From Oculina patagonica (lineage: Eukaryota), in assembly GCF_052425735.1 (NCBI RefSeq), contig NC_135763.1:14446001-14510000 (forward strand): a stretch of DNA of 64,000 nt, in the 5' to 3' direction. Under the pieces are notes generated by a model. That model had not been told where the DNA came from, did not search any database, and saw only the letters and a program-made list of their open reading frames with translations. The position numbers and the translations under genes are program-made. Shown here piece by piece: positions 1,190-47,497 of the stretch (position 1 is its first letter; each line of letters begins with the position of its first letter).

Positions 1190-2217
1190 GTTCGCTTGAT
1201 ATGTAAGGTCACGATCGTGTTGCCTTCGCCAAAATCCACCAGTTTACCTGTAGTCTCGCTCACTTGCGTTTCAATAATGTCCACAATCTGGTTGCGGAGT
1301 GGAATATATTGTATGTGGAGAGGTTCAAAGTACTTGATACCTTTTCCTTCACGTTGAAAGTGAATTTCCCGCAACAGATCCGTGACTTGATTTCCCACAA
1401 CGGAACTACCACCCACGTCTGAGTAAACGAAAAGCGTACGCGATGCATCTCCAATCACTTTTTGGAAGGCTCTGTTGAGTTTCACAAAGCGCCAGTTACA
1501 ATAGCAACTCAAGAAAAGCTGTCCATTCTCAACAACCCAGAAATTTTTCTTGCCCTCTCCAAAATCATCCACGTCTATGGGATCGGGTATCGTAGCGTGG
1601 TGGCATTCCGGCTTCAGGTTCGGCCCGAGAAACACGTTTTCTTTCTCGTTCTTTTTTACCCATCCCATGTCAAAGGCCAAATCCTCGTTGAAAGACATGT
1701 AGTATGGGACGCCTTCAGTTTTCACTTCCGAGACGTCCAAGTTCGAGTTGTCGAGGACTAGCTCTTCACCTTCCCACTTGAAAGTATATTCCCACTCCTT
1801 TCCATTATCTGGCGACTTGGTCAAGTCTCCCACGATACGCTTGTATTCTTTGACTTGATCGAACTTGAAGACCAGGGCTTTCATGAAACTGAGGCCATCC
1901 ACGATGTTGTCGTCATATAGAATGTCCTGGAACGTCAGATCGGTGGTCACCGACTTGCTTTGCACGCGACCCTCCTTGTCTTTGCGCTTGAGCATCCACT
2001 GGGCACTCAAGAGAGGAAACTTGAACGACTTAAAGCGAGTTAAGTCGATGCTGGCATCTGGCACGGAAATGCTACTCAATCCCACTTTCCAACCGGTTCC
2101 TTCCAATCGTAGCGGGTGAGGTAATCGCACCTTGAAAGAGTTTGCTCTATTCTCTGGAAACTCGGTTCCGCTGCTGTGACTGGGTAACGTGACGTAAAAT
2201 CCTTCCTCGTGGCTCAT
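1186..2217 (-). CDS. Polinton minor capsid protein (penton, single jelly-roll)
   Basis: FYVTLPS.SS...FPEN....F.V.LP..L.L...W.VGL N-terminus and LFVYSD...S.VG......LLR...YIPL C-terminus, characteristic of Polinton pentons. Confidence 0.88.
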   Translation of the reverse strand: MSHEEGFYVTLPSHSSGTEFPENRANSFKVRLPHPLRLEGTGWKVGLSSISVPDASIDLTRFKSFKFPLLSAQWMLKRKDKEGRVQSKSVTTDLTFQDILYDDNIVDGLSFMKALVFKFDQVKEYKRIVGDLTKSPDNGKEWEYTFKWEGEELVLDNSNLDVSEVKTEGVPYYMSFNEDLAFDMGWVKKNEKENVFLGPNLKPECHHATIPDPIDVDDFGEGKKNFWVVENGQLFLSCYCNWRFVKLNRAFQKVIGDASRTLFVYSDVGGSSVVGNQVTDLLREIHFQREGKGIKYFEPLHIQYIPLRNQIVDIIETQVSETTGKLVDFGEGNTIVTLHIKRT

Positions 2218-3293
2218 GATTTTTTTAGAGCCGTCTTCTCGATCCAGCTGTCGTACTTGTCTGGCCAGCCTTTCCAGTGCACCAAGACTTTATTTCCTTT
2301 TCGTTTGACGATCTTGTCCACCCTGAAGACATCGTCGTCGGACACTGCGACTTTTTGTAGATCTTCCTTGTAAAACGTACCGCGAAGGGGGGTGTCGTCC
2401 AACTCTTGGATCTTGTAAGTCGTGACGGGTGGTCCCCGACGCACCTCTCGTATCACAAACACTTCTTCGGTCCAGCCGGGTAAATACCCTTTCTCGAACG
2501 TGCGAAATTTCTTGTTCAATCTCACGCGTTCTCCTACTTTTAGCGGGGGTTTTCGATCTCTTTTACCCGACGACAATCTCTTCGCGTACAGACGTTCCCA
2601 CACTTTTCCTTCGTTGCTCGCATTCACTGTCTCAGGGCTGGTGCCGATGCTACGATGGTGGGATCCGTTGTAACCTTTCACCAAGGCCTGGAGTACGGGT
2701 AGGTAACTGAGCGTGTTCTTGGCGGTAAAGTATCGGTACATGCGTTCCTTGAGAGTGCGGTTGAAGCGTTCCACGGTGCTGGCTTTGGTATCTCCGGCCG
2801 TGGAAAAGTGGTGGATGCCTTCCCGTTTCATCAACGCGGCAAACGTCTTGTTGTAAAATTCTTTCCCGTCGTCGGTCTGTAGGTTCTGAGGTTTGCGTCC
2901 ATCGGCTCGTTTCAAAATCTTGGCAAAGGCGTCCGACACCGTTTTTCCCGTCTTGTCTTTTAGGGGTTCCACCCAGGCATATTTAGACAAGACGTCGATC
3001 ACGTTGAGTAGATATCTGTGACCCTTGTTGTATTTGGACAACGGTTGCGTTTCCACTAAATCGGCTACCCACTGTTGGTCGACGTTAAACACCAGGACCG
3101 GTAACGCGGCGAAACGACGTCTGCGCGGTTTGTGAAGGGTATAACCCAAATCGCGCTCCAATACTTTTTTGGCTGTGTCGACGGATATCTTGTGCGATTT
3201 GGCGAATCTTGTTATCCCACCCAAGCTACCCGGTTGACTGGGATCGTGGTAGTCCGAAAGTATTTTTTTATCCTTTTTCAGCTTCTTTGGCAT
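2214..3293 (-). CDS. Retroviral-type (rve) DDE integrase with C-terminal chromodomain
   Basis: Catalytic motifs QWVADL, LQTDDGKEF and VERFNRTLK. Chromodomain-like VDKIVKRKGNKVLVHWKGWPDKYDSWI. Confidence 0.96.
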   Translation of the reverse strand: MPKKLKKDKKILSDYHDPSQPGSLGGITRFAKSHKISVDTAKKVLERDLGYTLHKPRRRRFAALPVLVFNVDQQWVADLVETQPLSKYNKGHRYLLNVIDVLSKYAWVEPLKDKTGKTVSDAFAKILKRADGRKPQNLQTDDGKEFYNKTFAALMKREGIHHFSTAGDTKASTVERFNRTLKERMYRYFTAKNTLSYLPVLQALVKGYNGSHHRSIGTSPETVNASNEGKVWERLYAKRLSSGKRDRKPPLKVGERVRLNKKFRTFEKGYLPGWTEEVFVIREVRRGPPVTTYKIQELDDTPLRGTFYKEDLQKVAVSDDDVFRVDKIVKRKGNKVLVHWKGWPDKYDSWIEKTALKKS

Positions 3294-5836: not shown

Positions 5837-6358
5837 ATGACTCCGGAAAACGTGTGCATGATCTTGGACTTGGAAGGTTACTTTGTGGAGAAGACGTTTC
5901 GAGTACGCGAGTTGGGTTATTACACTTGGCAAGAAAAGTTCGGACGCCATGCTTTCTACATGAGAATGTCGTGGTGCAACTTATCTTCCAGAGACAGGAA
6001 AACCGTGTCTTACGTCAAATACAACGTGCACGGACTGACGTATCAACCCAGAAAGGAAGAAAAGGCCTACGAGTATGACAGGGTGGAGGAGGTGATGTGG
6101 GATTTGTACGAGGAGACCAAAACCCCCGAGAGAACCGTGGTGGCTTACAAGGGAGGACACGTAGAAAGAGACTTGTTGAACAAACTGAACATTCCTAGCG
6201 TGAATTTAGAACTGTACGGATGTCCGAAATACGACGTGTTGAAAGAGACCATTGTAGAACCTTTACCTAGTTGCGGTTTTCATCTATACGAAGGACATTG
6301 TCCAATGACCGAATGTCATGCTTTCTGGTTATGGTACCAGACTTTTCTTGTTAAATAA
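5837..6358 (+). CDS. DEDD/DnaQ-like 3'-5' exonuclease with putative Zn site
   Basis: LDLEG...RELG...HGL...YKGG...CGFH...HCPMTEC. AATAAA overlaps the stop (6354-6359). Confidence 0.8.
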   Translation: MTPENVCMILDLEGYFVEKTFRVRELGYYTWQEKFGRHAFYMRMSWCNLSSRDRKTVSYVKYNVHGLTYQPRKEEKAYEYDRVEEVMWDLYEETKTPERTVVAYKGGHVERDLLNKLNIPSVNLELYGCPKYDVLKETIVEPLPSCGFHLYEGHCPMTECHAFWLWYQTFLVK

Positions 6359-6412
6359 ATTTAAAAATTGCTCCATGCCGAAACTGAATTACGAGAGTAT
6401 GGGATTCAATCG

Positions 6413-7350
6413 CTTAAACAACAACAACAAATACCGCACGCTAAATTATATTTTTTCGCGAACGGTGAAAATCACAACAAAGTCGATGACACTTGTGCTT
6501 AGAGTCCAAAAATATGAAATTTTCGGCTCAATAACTTTCATCGAAATAATATCTTTAATGGTTGGTCGTCTTTTAGATTTAAGGGCGGCAAAAAAACATT
6601 TTTTCTTCGAGAAAAAACATTTGAACAACGGCCGAATGAACCACCTACAACAATTATATATTTTTAGCGGCCGGTGAAAAATCACAACAAACTCGTTGAC
6701 TCACTTGTTTAGGGTGTAAAAATGTGAAGATCCGGCTCAATGACTTGCTTTGAGATTCACTAAAATAATATCATTCATGGTTGGACGTCCCTTTCATTTC
6801 AGGGCCGCAAAAACAAACAAACAAACAAACGCATTTAAACAACAACAAATACCGTACGCTAAATTATATTTTTTCGCGAACGGTGAAAATCACAACAAAG
6901 TCGATGACACTTGTGCTTAGAGTCCAAAAATATAAAATTTTCGGCTCAATAACATTCATCGAAATAATATCATTCATGGTTAGACGTCCCTTTGATATAA
7001 GGGCCGCAAAAAAAAAATTTTCTTCGAGAAAAATGCATTTGAACAACGGCCAAACGAACCGCACGCTAAAATTATATTTTTTCGCGAACGGTAAAAATCA
7101 CAACAAAGTCGTTGACACACTTGTTTAGAGTCTAAAAATGTAAAAGAGTCGGCCCAATGGCTTGCTTTGCGTTTTACTAAATTAATACCATTCATGGTTG
7201 GACGTCCCTTTTGATTTAAGGGCCGAAACAAAATTTTTTTCCTCGAGAAACAATGCATTTGAACAACGGTCAAATGAACCGCTCGCAAAAATTATATTTT
7301 TTTCGCGACCGGTGAAAAATCACAACGGAGGCGGTGACACACTTGTTTAG
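6413..7350. repeat. Internal tandem array of ~210-bp units (4 full, 1 partial)
   Basis: The anchor ATCACAAC recurs at 6471, 6681, 6889, 7097 and 7319 (spacings 210, 208, 208, 222). Units 1/3 and 2/4 are most alike. Confidence 0.9.
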
Positions 7351-7854
7351 GATTTACAACGTTTAAGCTTCACTTCTAGGTGGCTAGGTTTTATTTTTTT
7401 TCTGAATCATAGTGGGATGTTCCCTCGATTTTGAGACCACGAAAAGAAAAGATGAAGTTGTTGTTGTTTACGAAAGACAACGACAACTGCGCGAGCAATT
7501 TCGCTTAAAAGAATAATTCAGTCCACCAAAAACGACTTGTTTATTCGTAAAGTTCGGTTTCTTCTTTCTTTGACCATAAACACAACTAGACCAAAAAACC
7601 TTGAACGAAATGAACGGGTCTAAAACCTTCTTCTTCTTTACTATGCACGGTTCATGATGGCCGCACGAACAAAAACAAACCACTCGTCAAAATTTACAAC
7701 GTAACCAAATTTATTTTTCGCAGTAAATACAATTTATCAAACGCTCTTCGTCTTGTACAGTAGAGTATGGAGACATTAGCTCACCTTAAAGCTTATATCC
7801 TTCTTGAAAAGAGCTGTAATCCGACAAGAAAACTTTGTCCGTTTTACTGTACTT

Positions 7855-8135
7855 TTCCGAGAATGAACACACGCGGGTTCCTAGAATTCCGAGAATTCCG
7901 AGAAAGATTCTCCACGCGCGTGCGTCGGGATTTTTCCCTTGGGGGGAAATCCCGGGATTTTACCCTTGTGGGGAAAATCCCGTCAGCTTGGGATTTTACC
8001 CTTGTGGGGAAAATCCCGTCACCTTGGGTGACATTGATCATGAGATCTCATTGGTTCATTCTGTATCAGGTCACCTCGATTGACCAATGGGAATACTAGA
8101 GCCCAGTTCTTCTGGGATGGGAAAGTTGTATAAAA
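7855..8135 (+). promoter_or_regulatory. Putative polymerase promoter: 4 GAS/STAT-like sites, 6 kB-like sites, CCAAT, TATA
   Basis: TTCCGAGAA at 7855-7863. TTCCTAGAA-TTCCGAGAA-TTCCGAGAA at 7878-7904. Paired GGGATTTT(T/A)CCC and GGGGAAA(A)TCCC motifs at 7927-8017. CCAAT near 8084, TATAAAA at 8129-8135, ATG at 8200. Confidence 0.65.
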
Positions 8136-8199
8136 GGAGCTACTTTGCTCATTTATTCACTCGCAAACATAGTTTGGTCTTGAGCGCTCTGAGAAGAAG

Positions 8200-8494
8200 A
8201 TGGAAGCCAATGAGAGGCAAACAGAAAGTGACGAAGAGGTACTGAGAGAAGTCTTAGCCCTCGAGGATAAGATTGAAGAAGATGAGACTACTATGGTTGG
8301 AAATGAGACTACTACTGGAGAAGATATAGAGGCTGAGAGCCCGGAGAGAGCTAGATTGGAAGAGGTACGTTGATGAGATGCGTTGGGTTATATTTGATTC
8401 GCCAATGTTTTTTATTTATACGATGTTCTTTTCATCGTAGAGTGCAAGTACAAGTGCAAGTACAAGTGGTGGTGGAGGAGAGTCCAATGAAGAG
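8200..8494 (+). CDS. Two predicted coding leader exons of pPolB (8200-8364 and 8441-8494)
   Basis: Exon 1 MEANERQ...ARLEE ends GAG|gtacgt. The intron ends ttttcatcgtag. Exon 2 SASTSASTSGGGGESNEE ends GAG|gtaact. Acceptor tttcctttgtttcaag| directly precedes ATG 8878. All junctions are phase 0 and in frame. Confidence 0.65.
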
Positions 8495-8877
8495 GTAACT
8501 AGTTATTAGAGTAGAGTTAATTCGTGTAACCCGTTTTTCATGTGCTTTTATGCTGTGTAATATTCTAATGAGCTGTACAGGAAAACAGAAAATTACGGAC
8601 AAATGTTCTTGTAGTCACTTTAAAGGCCCCTGTACTTTCCACGAGTACTGCTGACTCCGATCATTGCAGTCATATAGATAAAAAAACGTACATTCATTGT
8701 CTTATTGCCTTTGACTTTCAATTGAGAGGCCACGTTGACCGGAGAGTACGCAGATTTGTTCGAGACCACTGTACTTTGGAAGAGTGCTGATGACTCCGAA
8801 CATGGCAGTCATATAGATAAAAAAACGTGCATTTGTTTTTTTCCATCCATTCATTGCCTTATTTCCTTTGTTTCAAG

Positions 8878-11800
8878 ATGGAAGCTCCTTTTGAATTTGA
8901 ACTGAGAGGTCACGTGGACCGCAGAGTACGCAGATTTGGGCTCCACATCAGAAACTTTACCGGACGTTTAATACAGACAGGTGGTGGCGCCGCAGTAGGA
9001 TCCGCACCCCTGGGACCGCGCCCCGTACTCGTACAACAGATTGCCAGAGCCCTGCAGAGAGCCGTGCAGCGCCATATTTTGGACGACGGAGCCGTTGGAG
9101 ATGACGACCACTTGTTGATCAACATCAACAGTAACAGGATTCAAAATGCTTTTCATTCCAGACGGCTGAGAGTGGGAGAGTGGCGAGAAAACACCGTCGC
9201 TGCCCAACAGCTGCTAAAACAAATCAGTGACATGCTGAACAGTAATCAGACTTTTCAAGTGGACGACACGTTCAACCTAAACGTGTCTCACGTGCAAGAT
9301 CCAGGCCGAGGGGGAGACAACCAGAAACACAAACCCGGTTTGGACCCCATCGAGGACATCCTGCAAAAAAAAAAATGTGTCTTCAAGATAAAAAACACCG
9401 ACCAGTTATGCTGTGCCCGCGCCTTGGTGATGATGAAGGCCCGTGCCGATTTCGGGACCGACCATTGGTACTACTCCAACTTAAGGAAGTACGATACAGT
9501 ACAGGAAAGGGCTGCCAGGGAACTACACCGTTTGTCCGACGTGCCAGAAGGTCCTTGCGGGTTGGACGAATTGGCCAAATTTCAAGCCCACTTGAACGCT
9601 TACCAGATTGTGGTGGTGTCTGTCCAACATGGTTACCAGATCATCTTCAAAGGAGCACAACGCCCCGACGACAAACGTTTGATCTTGATCAAACACCATG
9701 ACCATTACCACGGCTGTACCTCCCTAGGGGGATTTTTTGGCAAGAGTTACTATTGTACCAAGTGCGAAAAGGGCTTCAGCCACAACGACCGCAAGGAGCA
9801 CAACTGCCCGGGGGCCAGGTGCGCCGCCTGCCATCAGACAGATTGCCACGAATGGAAGAGAGCCCACGCTGTACCCAGGGTGAACTGTACAGACTGTCAA
9901 CGGGACTTTTTTGGAACCCGTTGTCTTCAATTGCACAAGAGTCGCACCGACACCGGCAAAGACATGACCCGAGACAAGAGGAACAGCGTGTGTGACAAGC
10001 ACAAACGGTGTGCGGGCTGTTTCAAGACGTACGGTGACTATGAACTGAGAAACAGTCACAAGTGCGGCCACGCTCTCTGCCCGTCTTGTAAGGAATACCA
10101 AGATCTTCGCTACCACCAGTGCTACATACAAAATCCTCTCAAGGTGAAACAAAAACAGAACCGCAAGAGAACCAGCGCTGGTCAACGCAAAGAAGACCAA
10201 CCACCCGTGTTCGTCAGTTGGGACGCCGAAGCCACGCAGGAAGAAGGCCAGCACGTGGCCAACTTGATTTGCGCCCTGAGAGGAGACACCGACGAGAGGA
10301 GAACCTTCGAGGGAGAGACTTGCGTGAAAGACTTTCTCGCTTGGTTGAGGGAGATCGCCGAACAACACCGCGTCATAGCTGTCGCTCATAACTTCCAAGG
10401 CTACGACTCCTATTTCATCCTGAACGAGTTGTACGACCAAGCCATCTGCCCTGAACAAGTCGTCAATGGTGCCAAAATAATCAGCATGACCATCCCCAAC
10501 ATCACCTTTAAGGACTCCATGTGTTTTCTACAGATGAGCCTTGCTACCTTTCCCAAAGCCTTTGGCCTCACCGAACAAAAGAAGGGGTTTTTCCCCCACT
10601 TTTTCAACACGCAGGAACATCAAAACTATGTGGGCAGCATGCCTGCCAGAGACTATTACGATCCAGAGGGAATGTCCGCTGCCAGGAAAGCCGAATTCGA
10701 CAAGTGGTACGAAGAACGCGTGGCGGAGAATTACGAGTTCCACTTTCGGAACGAACTTGTCGACTACTGTCGCTCGGACGTGGAGCTGTTGCACGAAGGT
10801 TGCAAGGTCTTCCGGGCAGAGTTTCAAGCCATTGCCGGGTTCGATCCCATGGACCAATGCCTCACCATTGCCTCCGCCTGTAATCGCTTCTACCGCACCA
10901 AGTGCATGCAAGAACAGACGTTGGCTTCTGAACCGGTACGAGGCTGGGAAGGCAAGGGCAAACCTCACTCGCACGTCTCGCTGGAATGGTTGCTGTATCA
11001 AGACAGCCAGACGCAGGGTACCATCCGCCACGCCAGGAACGGTGGAGAACGAGCCTTGTGGATTGGAGGCCGTCTGATCAACGTCGACGGGTACGAGGAT
11101 CGCACGGTTTACGAGTTCCACGGCTGTTACTTTCACGGCTGTCCTGACTGTTTTCCCAATCGCGATCAGAAGCACCGGAAGATGGGCGACAGAAGTCTGA
11201 GGGACGTGTACGCGGAAACGCAACAAAAGACGCAACGGATCCGGGATGCGGGTTACCGCGTGGTAGAAATGTGGGAATGCCAGTGGAAAGCGCTCAAGGA
11301 CAGTGATCCCGAGGTGAAATCGTTCGTGGACTCGTTGGCGATCAACTCCCGCTTGGAGCCCCGAGACGCGTTCTTTGGCGGTAGAACCAATGCCGTCCGC
11401 CTCTATGACCTTGCCGAACCTGAAGAGGAGATCCGGTACGTGGACTTTACTTCATTGTACCCATGGGTAAATAAAAACTGTGACTACCCTCAGGGGCATC
11501 CCGAAGTGATCCTAGAACCGGGACACACAAACATTTCACAATTCTTCGGTCTGGCAAAGTGTACGGTGACGCCACCTTACGGGTTGTACAGCCCCGTGTT
11601 GCCCTATCGCCAAGGGGGTAAACTGACATTCCCCCTCTGCCGTACCTGCGTGGAAGTGGAGCAGCCCAAGCCATTGACCCAGCGATCCTCCAAATGCGCT
11701 CACAGCCCTCAAGAACGCCAACTGACCGGAACGTGGTGCACGCCCGAGTTGGAAGAGGCCGTCAAGCAAGGGTACGTGGTGGAGCACATTCACGAGGTGT

Positions 11801-12796: not shown

Positions 12797-13211
12797 GATG
12801 GGAAACCTACCGCAACACGTTGATATAGTTTCAATCGTACCCACGTTGATCGTTCTCCATAACTGAATATTTAATAACTTACTTGTCGACATCTTTTGAG
12901 ATATAAACACTCTCGCCGCTCGATTCGTACTCGTTCCCAGTAAAACCGAGAAAGGGGGATACCCCCTCATCCCCCCGCTCTGACGTGTTTTTTTTTTTAA
13001 TACTTCACAAGCGTGCGTTTTTTCAGAATCGCTGAAGCAATGTAGACTCATCTGCGCATGCGTTTAGTGCAAAGTATTGAGTTCCAGATGCCACAAGGAC
13101 AGTATGGCACTTTGTGAACCATATCTATAGGATGGTGGTCTTGCTAACTTTTCATTCCCAGGGTGCGCGGCCACTAGGGCTTAGTGAACATTGACACAAG
13201 GAAAAAAAAAT

Positions 13212-13283
13212 ATCCCCAGCGAGGACTCGAACCTCGATTGCCTACCTCAGCGGCAGGAGTGATACCCGTTACACTACCGGGGC
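13212..13283 (-). ncRNA. tRNA-Gln(CTG)-like Pol III gene inside the Polinton (non-canonical)
   Basis: Minus strand reads GCCCCGG TA GTGTAACGGGTATCAC T CCTGC CGCTGAG GTAGG CAAT CGAGG TTCGAGT CCTCG CTGGGGA T: a 72-nt cloverleaf with A and B boxes and a T9 terminator at 13202-13210. G at position 33 and a G1-A72 mismatch are non-canonical. Confidence 0.75.
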
Positions 13284-13435
13284 TTTAGGACCACTTGTTA
13301 CCGTTTTTTAGTGTCTTGTACCTTAACAGAAAAAACCTGTTATTAAAAAAAACCTGTTTTTACACCTATTTTCTTGTCTTGTCGTTTTTTCCGCGCGAGG
13401 ACTGGGACCAAGTTCATTCTAACCGTTCGGGAACT

Positions 13436-13702
13436 GGGACCGACTGCTGTGACGTCATCGCCTCCGAGTCACGTGATTTTTTCCCGTTTCATCCATTTTT
13501 TGCCCCTTTTTAAAAAAAATTTCCGAGGGGGACTGGGGCGAGCGCTTTTTGGCCGTTGGGGCCTAGAACCGAGACTCGGACCACCCTGGGACCGACTCCT
13601 ATGACGTCATCCCTCCCAAGTCACGTGATTTCCCCCTCTACGCATGCGCAGAAATGCTGCTCTGTGATTGGCTAGATCCGAACTTAAGCGGTCCTTACTA
13701 CT
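13436..13702. repeat. Polinton terminal region (probable TIR) with a duplicated CRE + E-box module
   Basis: GGGACCGACT...TGACGTCATC...GTCACGTGATTT at 13436-13479 and 13588-13631, ending in ACTACT at 13697-13702. TIR length cannot be set without the other end. Confidence 0.7.
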
Positions 13703-14140
13703 ACCGTTCCAAATTTTTTTTGCTCCTTTTGCTTCCTTTTTTTCTGCCTTCTTATTCTCCTTACTTTCTACTCTTCATATCCTTTCTTTTGGCCAAAAAA
13801 GTTTTGACGTTATCATTGGAAAACACTGAAAAGGGGACCTTGACCAATTACAGGTGTACTGGCCTGTTTAAGCAACGATTTTGCACCAAAAATGGATTGT
13901 GCTTTTCTTTGATTAGCTCTGTCAGAATGCAACCGATATTCAAAATGAACCGTCCTATAGAAAGGTCGATCCAAGCTCTGTCAGATTCTTATCACGAAAT
14001 TCCACTGACGTGCTTATTGATGACGTCACAATTGAATCAATGACTGCACCTCCAAATAGCGCCTGAATGCGCGTTTAGGAGTGAAAGGGTTAAGGGCGCT
14101 TTCCATTTGACAGAACTGGCCGGCCGGCCCGGTGGTTAAT

Positions 14141-45924: not shown

Positions 45925-47497
45925 CCGACCGATTTCGGTTCTTCCCGTCCTCTCAAAAATCTTTGAAAGGCACTTGCACAACTCTCTGTATGCCTTTCTC
46001 AGGGAAAACAACCTTCTATATCAACTGCAATCCGCCTTCAGGAAACACCACTCAACGGAGACAGCTCTAATCAACATCATCGACCGTATGCTGTTCAATC
46101 TCGATGACAACCGCATTAACGGCTTGGTTCTGGCTGACTTTCAAAAGGCTTTCGATCTTGTTAACCACGACATCTTGTTTGAAAAGCTGCGTATCTATGG
46201 TCTGGATGAATGCAGCCTGGCCCTTATGCGCTCGTTCCTTCAAAATCGCAGGCAGCGCACGGTCATCCGCGGTAGTGCACAGTCTTCGTCCCAGGCTCTC
46301 ACACATGGTGTACCACAGGGATCCGTACTCTCTCCACTACTCTTCCTGGTATTCATAAACGATCTTTCCGAGGGAGTGTCACAACCAACCACAGTCGACA
46401 TCTTTGCGGATGATACAACTATGAGCTCATCCTCGCCATACACTGATACTTCTGGTCTATGCTCCAGGCTCTGTGAGAGCACCCGTGAGCTTGAGGACTG
46501 GACTAGAAATAACCGTTTCAAACTAAATATCGAGAAGACGAAGTCTATGTTTGTAACTGGGAGTAGGCTACGCACTAAGATCGGTAGTACCGGTGTCGAC
46601 GAGATGAAAATCTGTACTAGCAGCGGGGAAGCCTTAGACAATACCACAAGCCACAAGCTTCTTGGAGTCCATGTTGATCAAGACCTAAGTTTCAATGAAC
46701 ATGTCGAACACTTATGTAAGAAACTAGCAAAGCGTTTAGGTGTTCTTAGGTCAATCAGACATTATCTTCCTCTAAACGAGCGCATACTCTTCTACAATGC
46801 AACTATAAAGCCTATATTTCTGTACGGCGGAGCAGTCTGGAGTTCAACATCTAAAAGTAACATAAGAAGAATTTTTCGTCTCCAGAAAAGGGCTGCCCGT
46901 GTTATCCTAGGCGTTAAAACAAGAGATGAACGTACTGTAAGTTTATTTAAGAGACTAGACTGGTTGCCCTTTTATGATGAAATCACTGTTAATAAGCTAT
47001 GCTTAATTTACAAATGCCTAAATGGACAATGCCCAGAGTATTTAAGGAACAGACTTGTAAGTGTCAATGACATGTCCACCAGAACCTCGCGCTATGGTGA
47101 TATTACTTTACGCTGTCCTCGGTATAACCGTGAAACGGAAGGTGGAAGAACTTTTCTTGTTTCAGCCACTAAATGTTGGAACTCTTTGCCTATATATATT
47201 AGAACTAGCACTAGCATTAAGGCCTTTAAACATAATTATAGTAATTTTATTAAGGAAGGTTATGCCGACTTAGATAGCTTTCCCATGTCATAATTTTTAA
47301 ATTTTTATACTGTCACACCCAAATTACTGTTTGTATTTTTATCTAGTTTTTATCTATCTTATCTGTTTTCATTTTTTATTGATAATATATTTGTAGTAGT
47401 ATTAACTTTTATTCTAGGGGAGGGCCACAGGTTTTTCAGTTTTTAACTGTAATGTGTAACCCTCATTAAATAAAGTTGTTATTATTATTATTATTAT
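45925..47497 (+). mobile_element. 5'-truncated CR1/L2-group LINE (reverse transcriptase ORF 45974-47293)
   Basis: RPISVLPVLSKIFE, QSAFRKHHSTETAL, DFQKAFDLVNH, GVPQGSVLSPLLF and FADD motifs. 3' UTR with AATAAA and an (ATT)n tail ending ~47497. Confidence 0.93.

Follow-up and report, generated by a model that had tools for sequence, protein, structure and literature searches.

The locus studied here raises the question of what a short array of palindromes is doing upstream of the DNA polymerase gene of a mobile element in the coral Oculina patagonica. The palindromes resemble binding sites of the immune regulator NF-kB, which would connect the element to its host, and they can also fold. We analysed a window of 64,000 nucleotides (contig NC_135763.1, positions 14,446,001 to 14,510,000); positions refer to this window unless another contig is given. 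Statements drawn from PMC3630861, PMC4728583, PMC5700166, PMC8502044, PMC8713801, PMC10329013, PMC11131425 and PMC13042239 apply to the parts of these sources covered here.

The polymerase is encoded by an element of 20,174 bp, the left end of which lies outside the window, at L144:3529. Its terminal inverted repeats of 673 bp are 98.5% identical and identical 6-mers border both ends. The parts relevant here are the following:

2214..3293, minus strand: retroviral-type integrase with a chromodomain (PF00665, PF00385)
8200..8364, plus strand: leader exon 1, coding part, 55 codons, acidic, with a GT donor at 8365; N-terminus of the annotated paralogue P0109
8441..8494, plus strand: leader exon 2, with 18 codons and GT/AG ends, joined in frame to 8878 by splicing; also supported by P0109
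8878..12744, plus strand: main exon of the protein-primed family B DNA polymerase (pPolB), 1288 aa (PF03175, E 1.5e-47)
13042..13702, no strand: right terminal inverted repeat; a 6-bp target-site duplication adjoins it at 13703-13708

By its termini, polymerase and integrase, the element is of the Polinton/Alpha-adintovirus kind. Terminal inverted repeats, the 6-bp duplication, a PF03175 pPolB, an rve integrase and a PLA2-like gene (PF08398 in this element) are shared with Polintons/Mavericks, Alpha adintoviruses (PMC8502044) and the polintoviruses of stony corals (PMC11131425). The PLA2-like gene is typical of Alpha modules (PMC8502044), and the presence of many copies in a coral genome is a further likeness to the stony-coral polintoviruses (PMC11131425). 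The element also encodes a GRF zinc-ribbon (zinc-finger) protein. Candidate open reading frames for capsid, ATPase and protease were seen, with a Walker-A-like motif in L144:7939-8703; the capsid, packaging ATPase and protease candidates had no match in Pfam or PDB. Searches of IMG/VR for relatives of the polymerase, with the single sequence and with an alignment, and of the neighbouring 173-aa open reading frame returned none, and polymerases 52-73% identical occur in other samples. Both terminal repeats continue inward at an identity of 83%, and in each this extension contains a kB-like palindrome of the form G5-ATA-C5 (12954-12966 and L144:4408). In the host flank (15338-50265), rhodopsin-family GPCR genes were found in three of three scanned cases. 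Repeat families D2-D12 and D15 mark related open reading frames nearby, and 46088-47293 holds a reverse-transcriptase open reading frame.

Because two in-phase spliced exons link the TATA box to pPolB, the array region is the promoter of the polymerase. The polymerase of P0109, which is 98% identical and labelled Oculina patagonica, carries a like leader, and the second intron is skipped with GT..AG ends in two contigs of run X3, the RNA label of which is a guess. The joined form of the leader was not found in the genome. Together the leader exons encode an acidic, low-complexity N-terminus of 73 aa that diverges strongly between copies. Contigs spanning the array were present in three of the four runs; they are assembled contigs from runs with a guessed RNA label and have no bearing on expression. 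Within the second intron, a 93-bp part (8512-8604) stood out by high depth in all four runs, in many contigs with unrelated flanks. It had no match in Rfam and may be a dispersed repeat of small size or an RNA from the intron. An Rfam search of positions 6300-9000 returned a CRISPR-repeat match alone, which was rejected at E 0.96. A degenerate 208-bp tandem repeat of 4.4 copies (6414-7350) occupies the space between the 173-aa open reading frame and the promoter; it recurs in other elements with 3-4.4 copies. A search for a leftward TATA-like word in 7301-7930 found none.

The promoter itself contains these features:

7855..7863, no strand: distal STAT/GAS-type site TTC-N3-GAA, motif match
7878..7904, no strand: three tandem STAT/GAS-type 9-mers (7878-7886, 7887-7895, 7896-7904), motif match, tandem repeat
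7927..7953, no strand: palindromic unit 1; the right arm carries GGGAAATCCC (7944-7953), and no other kB core in the array is as strong; the left-arm binding values are mixed
7954..7981, no strand: palindromic unit 2; right-arm kB core at 7972-7981, left arm with position 9 fixed and unpaired
7990..8017, no strand: palindromic unit 3, TATA-proximal and identical to unit 2, the pair being a 36-bp tandem duplication
8050..8054, minus strand: CCAAT box, in all aligned copies, which we take to be an NF-Y-type site
8084..8088, plus strand: second CCAAT box, motif match
8129..8136, plus strand: TATA box of the polymerase gene, TATAAAAG, motif match

The first-pass annotation had listed six NF-kB-like strings and placed them upstream of the polymerase TATA box. 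All six were confirmed, at 7927, 7943, 7954, 7970, 7990 and 8006-8017 (the G run of the second begins at 7941), as was their placement, the array ending 111 bp before the TATA box. They had been described as three palindromic pairs, and three palindromic units are indeed present, each a copy of one palindrome of 27-28 bp. The six strings are not independent sites, since units 2 and 3 form a tandem duplication (2.1 copies, 97%); what is present instead is one duplicated unit. The suggested resemblance to the layout of the HIV LTR does not extend to location: the array lies inside the element, about 5 kb away from its right terminal repeat, and is not part of an LTR. Its plus strand folds at -28.7 kcal/mol (z -5.8), a value equalled by none of 200 shuffles, and three further short hairpins flank it. 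The exact unit pattern has 59 matches in the genome, all of them within 26 of 27 Polinton promoter copies, and none for the reversed control. The fold z-score and these matches place the array above chance.

Beyond the earlier description, the region yielded four STAT-type sites, two CCAAT boxes and a pair of spliced leader exons, all listed above. The motif TTCYNRGAA occurs ten times in the window (7.6 expected), four of these occurrences falling within 72 bp upstream of the array; because three of the four form one 9-bp tandem repeat, they amount to about two independent sites. Between two and four GAS-type sites are kept in each of the 27 copies. Two GAS-type sites together with a kB match were found in none of 249 host-flank bins of 200 bp. 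Reading the TTC/GAA repeats as heat-shock elements was rejected, as their spacing is 3 and 0 and that of the heat-shock-element consensus is 2. Comparison of the copies, which are highly alike, showed 4 of 24 GAS-core positions to be variable and 25 of 126 neighbouring ones (p = 1.0), and the last palindromic unit is identical in 17 of the 27. In this constraint test across near-alike copies, motif positions were thus without detectable excess conservation over their neighbours.

The kB consensus (GGGRNNYYCC) divides the units into unequal halves. Of the claim of six kB-like sites, the part concerning the three right arms, which match the consensus, was upheld; none of the three left arms matches. 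On both strands of the window there are 13 matches (5.8 +/- 3.3 expected), four of them inside the array and all in right arms. The same asymmetry holds across copies (GGGRNNYYCC/GGGRNWYYCC): 73 of the 82 right arms match, and 25 of the 27 copies have at least one such match, against none of the 82 left arms. The two remaining copies, L016 and L023, are without any consensus kB site.

Published protein-binding microarrays report binding to such cores by NF-kB of sea anemones, not of the coral host, and to probes that are 10-11-mers in fixed non-native flanks; several cores of the array have no probe in the covered parts of either table (PMC3630861, PMC5700166). Row look-ups in supplement 2 of PMC5700166 gave the following z values, in the order Nematostella-Cys/Nematostella-Ser/Aiptasia NF-kB. 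The reference palindrome GGGAATTCCC reached 12.7/11.4/12.0. For the right arm of unit 1, GGGAAATCCC scored 11.4/9.7/9.8 and a second register, GGATTTCCCC, 11.1/11.4/10.0; for that of units 2 and 3, GGAAAATCCC scored 7.7/4.7/5.6 and GGATTTTCCC 8.0/7.3/5.7. Left arms of units 2 and 3 gave 4.0/3.0/4.0 (GGGATTTTAC) and 2.0/3.7/0.7 (GGATTTTACC), and the left arm of unit 1 gave -0.2/0.4/-0.9 (GGAAAAATCC), with 6.8/5.1/5.4 and 5.4/6.3/3.3 in two other registers. Right-arm cores therefore range over z 5-11 and left arms over -1 to 7, against 11-13 for the reference (PMC5700166). In the second table, GGATTTTCCCC, which reads the right arm of units 2 and 3 on the minus strand, stands in row 46; its z value for Nematostella p50 is 1.96 (rank 45 of 803), and those for p52 and RelA are 2.75 and 3.79 (PMC3630861). 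The six native strings, taken as exact 11-mers, had no match in the covered part of that table, and shorter terms gave the rows cited. From the right-arm and left-arm values it follows that each unit is one good kB site plus one weaker, inverted site.

The left-arm 12-mer has 97 matches genome-wide, 41 of them in Polinton copies, and the reversed control has 35; short G-rich/C-rich palindromes in general resemble kB sites. When the unit pattern was searched in IMG/VR, three contigs of bacterial type with unrelated open reading frames matched, which was judged a coincidence.

A search with the promoter gave 36 matches in the coral genome, of which 27 span the array, and all 27 were examined. 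One copy has a single unit, 6 have two, 11 have three and 9 have four (82 units). In DNA-like runs coded as other organisms the array is present with a changed unit number and is otherwise near-identical. For copies L012-L020, L022, L023 and L035 the promoter was compared with the pPolB matches. Like upstream modules (mostly 84-93% identical) precede polymerases that are 40, 60, 63, 69 and 93-97% identical; where the polymerase has no more than 40-63% identity to the one in the window, the module still has 89-93%. Three or more different core promoters (TATA/initiator segments) follow the module. Polymerase genes thus seem to be exchanged among Polinton copies, the breakpoints falling a short way past the downstream end of the array. 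The array is not general to these polymerases: among 40 upstream regions fetched from 116 pPolB matches, it was present in 7 and absent from 33, many of the latter having unrelated tandem repeats. Other Polinton families (L041-L060, L028, L030, L029, L040) possess tandem arrays of their own upstream of pPolB, built from 12-bp units (a forkhead-like word in 4-8 copies, or a different word in 15-18), from a 10-11-bp unit (about 10 copies) or from units of 34 and 80 bp. These may be multimerised sites for other host factors.

A hairpin role had been offered as the alternative to NF-kB binding. The units do fold, as the z-score given above indicates, but not one of the 82 has a perfect 12-bp stem, and position 9 is never Watson-Crick paired. 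Compensatory changes were not seen among these units, the left-arm changes that break pairing being uncompensated. A role as a hairpin only is therefore disfavoured. Nor did relatives keep the base pairing and lose the kB sequence, the pattern that the first-pass annotation had held against an NF-kB function, either among the copies or in a second clade of polymerases.

This second clade came from a set of 80 metagenome loci whose polymerases are related (28-41% identity in the best segments); 57 of the loci have enough upstream DNA. A kB-consensus match lies at -600 to -150 in 32 of the 57, or in 31 after removal of L108, whose match is outside a promoter context. The motif, aligned for 30 loci, is a palindrome of the G5-T-C5 type, in most cases 44-125 bp upstream of the TATA box, from which a CCAAT box usually separates it; in sequence it is unrelated to the array of the window. 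As the loci form one clade (SH-aLRT 99 in a quick tree) far from the lineage of the window, with motif-free lineages between, we treat them as a single independent case. The palindrome has a variable centre between G and C runs that hardly change, the covariation term is 0.07 (23 sequences), and in several copies the outer arm is lost and the core kept. Factors of the Sp/KLF or Zic/Glis type are possible alternative binders for this palindrome. Probes with its core gave z values of 6.0/5.7/9.7 and 5.4/4.8/8.9 (PMC5700166), and the variant of L072 matches a probe at z 2.13 (PMC3630861). In L066, L070, L074-L076 and others, genes diverge from a compact promoter that is bidirectional: the kB-like palindrome occupies its middle, and a TATA box flanks the palindrome in either direction.

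The expectation that the cnidarian host has NF-kB was borne out by a Rel domain (PF00554) with an intact recognition loop, for which p52 and p50 are the best structures. A stop-interrupted fragment resembling the Rel-domain exon of host NF-kB was observed on another contig, L143. For STAT, a linker exon is present in the host genome, and an exon-wise search of that genome did not find the DNA-binding domain. NF-kB of Nematostella is induced by cGAMP and needed for the induction of antibacterial genes, and the cGAMP induction is not blunted by STAT knockdown (PMC8713801); pathogen responses are the subject of a further source (PMC13042239). In Stylophora, it was the colony and not the heat treatment by which Polinton expression grouped (PMC11131425).

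The closest cnidarian precedent in kind is the TRAF3 promoter of Nematostella, where three kB sites upstream of the gene are bound by Nv-NF-kB and needed for activation of a reporter (PMC10329013); it differs in belonging to a host gene and in having dispersed single sites, not tandem palindromic pairs. Among viruses of invertebrates, the ie1 promoter of WSSV likewise combines a TATA box with sites for host STAT and NF-kB (Relish/Dorsal) (PMC4728583). Yet the product of ie1 is a transactivator, the virus is large and lytic, and the regulation of ie1 has been shown by experiment, whereas the Polinton target is a DNA polymerase in an integrated 20-kb element, with palindromic pairs of variable number known from their sequence. 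Repeated kB sites at about 100-200 bp upstream of a TATA box also characterise the HIV-1 LTR and the major immediate-early enhancer of CMV, which belong to latent or integrated genomes. The likeness to these is loose and consists in the repeated kB sites upstream of a TATA box; the coral array is internal and made of inverted pairs, and the host factor is p50/p52-like, in contrast to p65 heterodimers. The word "promoter" is absent from the main texts of PMC8502044 and PMC11131425, as are "kappa" and "intron" from that of PMC11131425 and "splic" from that of PMC8502044. In the literature covered, which was mainly open-access, Polinton promoters were nowhere described as having sites for host factors. 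The use of NF-kB and STAT by viruses is already known from WSSV, HIV and CMV; for Polintons, no report of it was found in that literature.

We lean towards the reading that the array acts as an enhancer of polymerase transcription bound by host NF-kB, probably with STAT, and would thus operate much as the ie1 promoter of WSSV does. In each unit, NF-kB homodimers would sit chiefly on the right arm, with weaker occupancy of the left, the number of units would tune the response, and STAT and NF-Y would assist when immune or stress pathways fire. The effect would be activation, not repression, and the extra polymerase would favour replication of the element in stressed cells. If the array is such an enhancer, host immune or stress signaling would likely raise polymerase transcription.

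Against this, the array might be a neutral by-product, a chance palindrome multiplied by slippage or unequal exchange in an intergenic region prone to repeats, with a promoter that needs its CCAAT and TATA boxes alone. The unit number, varying from one to four, fits such an origin, as do the derivation of the GAS triplet from a 9-bp tandem repeat, the adjoining 208-bp repeats, the unrelated tandem arrays upstream of pPolB in other Polinton families and the outcome of the constraint test. We nevertheless consider it rather unlikely, because motifs of two types of immune factor adjoin, a pairing that no host-flank bin shows; because all 27 copies, which were found by DNA similarity to this region, keep at least one unit and at least two GAS-type sites; and because the second clade retains a kB-like core despite substantial protein divergence. 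The palindromes could also bind another dimeric factor and confer tissue-specific or autoregulated expression. Candidates of the host are EBF/COE at the centre of unit 1, CSL/RBP-J, NFAT and a BCL6-like factor at TTCCTAGAA, and the element itself offers the product of its GRF zinc-finger open reading frame, a zinc-ribbon protein. That the symmetry covers the full 28-bp unit, beyond a single site of 10-11 bp, that the left arms are weak for NF-kB and that the module stays linked to the element's left arm when polymerases are exchanged all speak for a factor of this kind. However, the 2-bp spacing of an EBF-like site is missing from the commonest unit (a 4-bp loop in 53 of 80 units), a CSL-like core occurs in a minority of variants only, and binding of anemone NF-kB to the right-arm cores was measured in vitro, whereas the alternatives are suggested by motif likeness. 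Taken as a whole, with host and element-borne candidates together, we regard this explanation as unlikely.

A structural role, in which hairpins or cruciforms in single-stranded or supercoiled DNA would serve as a signal for replication, packaging or recombination and any resemblance to kB sites would be incidental, seems quite improbable. The folding of each unit and of the flanking hairpins, the palindrome at a like position in the second clade and the exchange breakpoints just downstream of the array are in its favour, but it has to contend with the imperfect stems, the unpaired position 9 and the uncompensated left-arm breaks, and in the second clade with the low covariation term and the retention of the core where the outer arm is lost. 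Protein-primed replication moreover starts at the termini. Finally, NF-kB might bind and repress or mark the promoter, silencing the element during immune activation. Homodimers of the p50/p52 type can repress in mammals, and the host Rel domain is p52/p50-like. Mammalian p50 is without a transactivation domain (PMC3630861), but NF-kB of Nematostella activates the TRAF3 reporter (PMC10329013) and is needed for antibacterial genes (PMC8713801), and we hold silencing to be very improbable.

Taking the window and the second clade together, it is conceivable, and tentatively proposed from the promoter sequences, that animal Polintons have repeatedly wired the expression of their polymerase to host immunity, in at least two lineages independently and in one of them also with STAT sites. 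If so, infection, loss of symbionts or heat would switch on Polinton replication in corals, the number of sites would be a tunable dial, and the module would be one that is swapped between divergent polymerases. In the literature covered, the triggers of animal Polintons are not addressed, and the promoter names two candidate host triggers; the question can be tested with a 400-bp fragment and the existing reagents for cnidarian NF-kB. In bleached Aiptasia, NF-kB activity is raised about six-fold (PMC5700166); a Polinton that responds to it would therefore tie bleaching or disease to the activity of mobile elements in corals.
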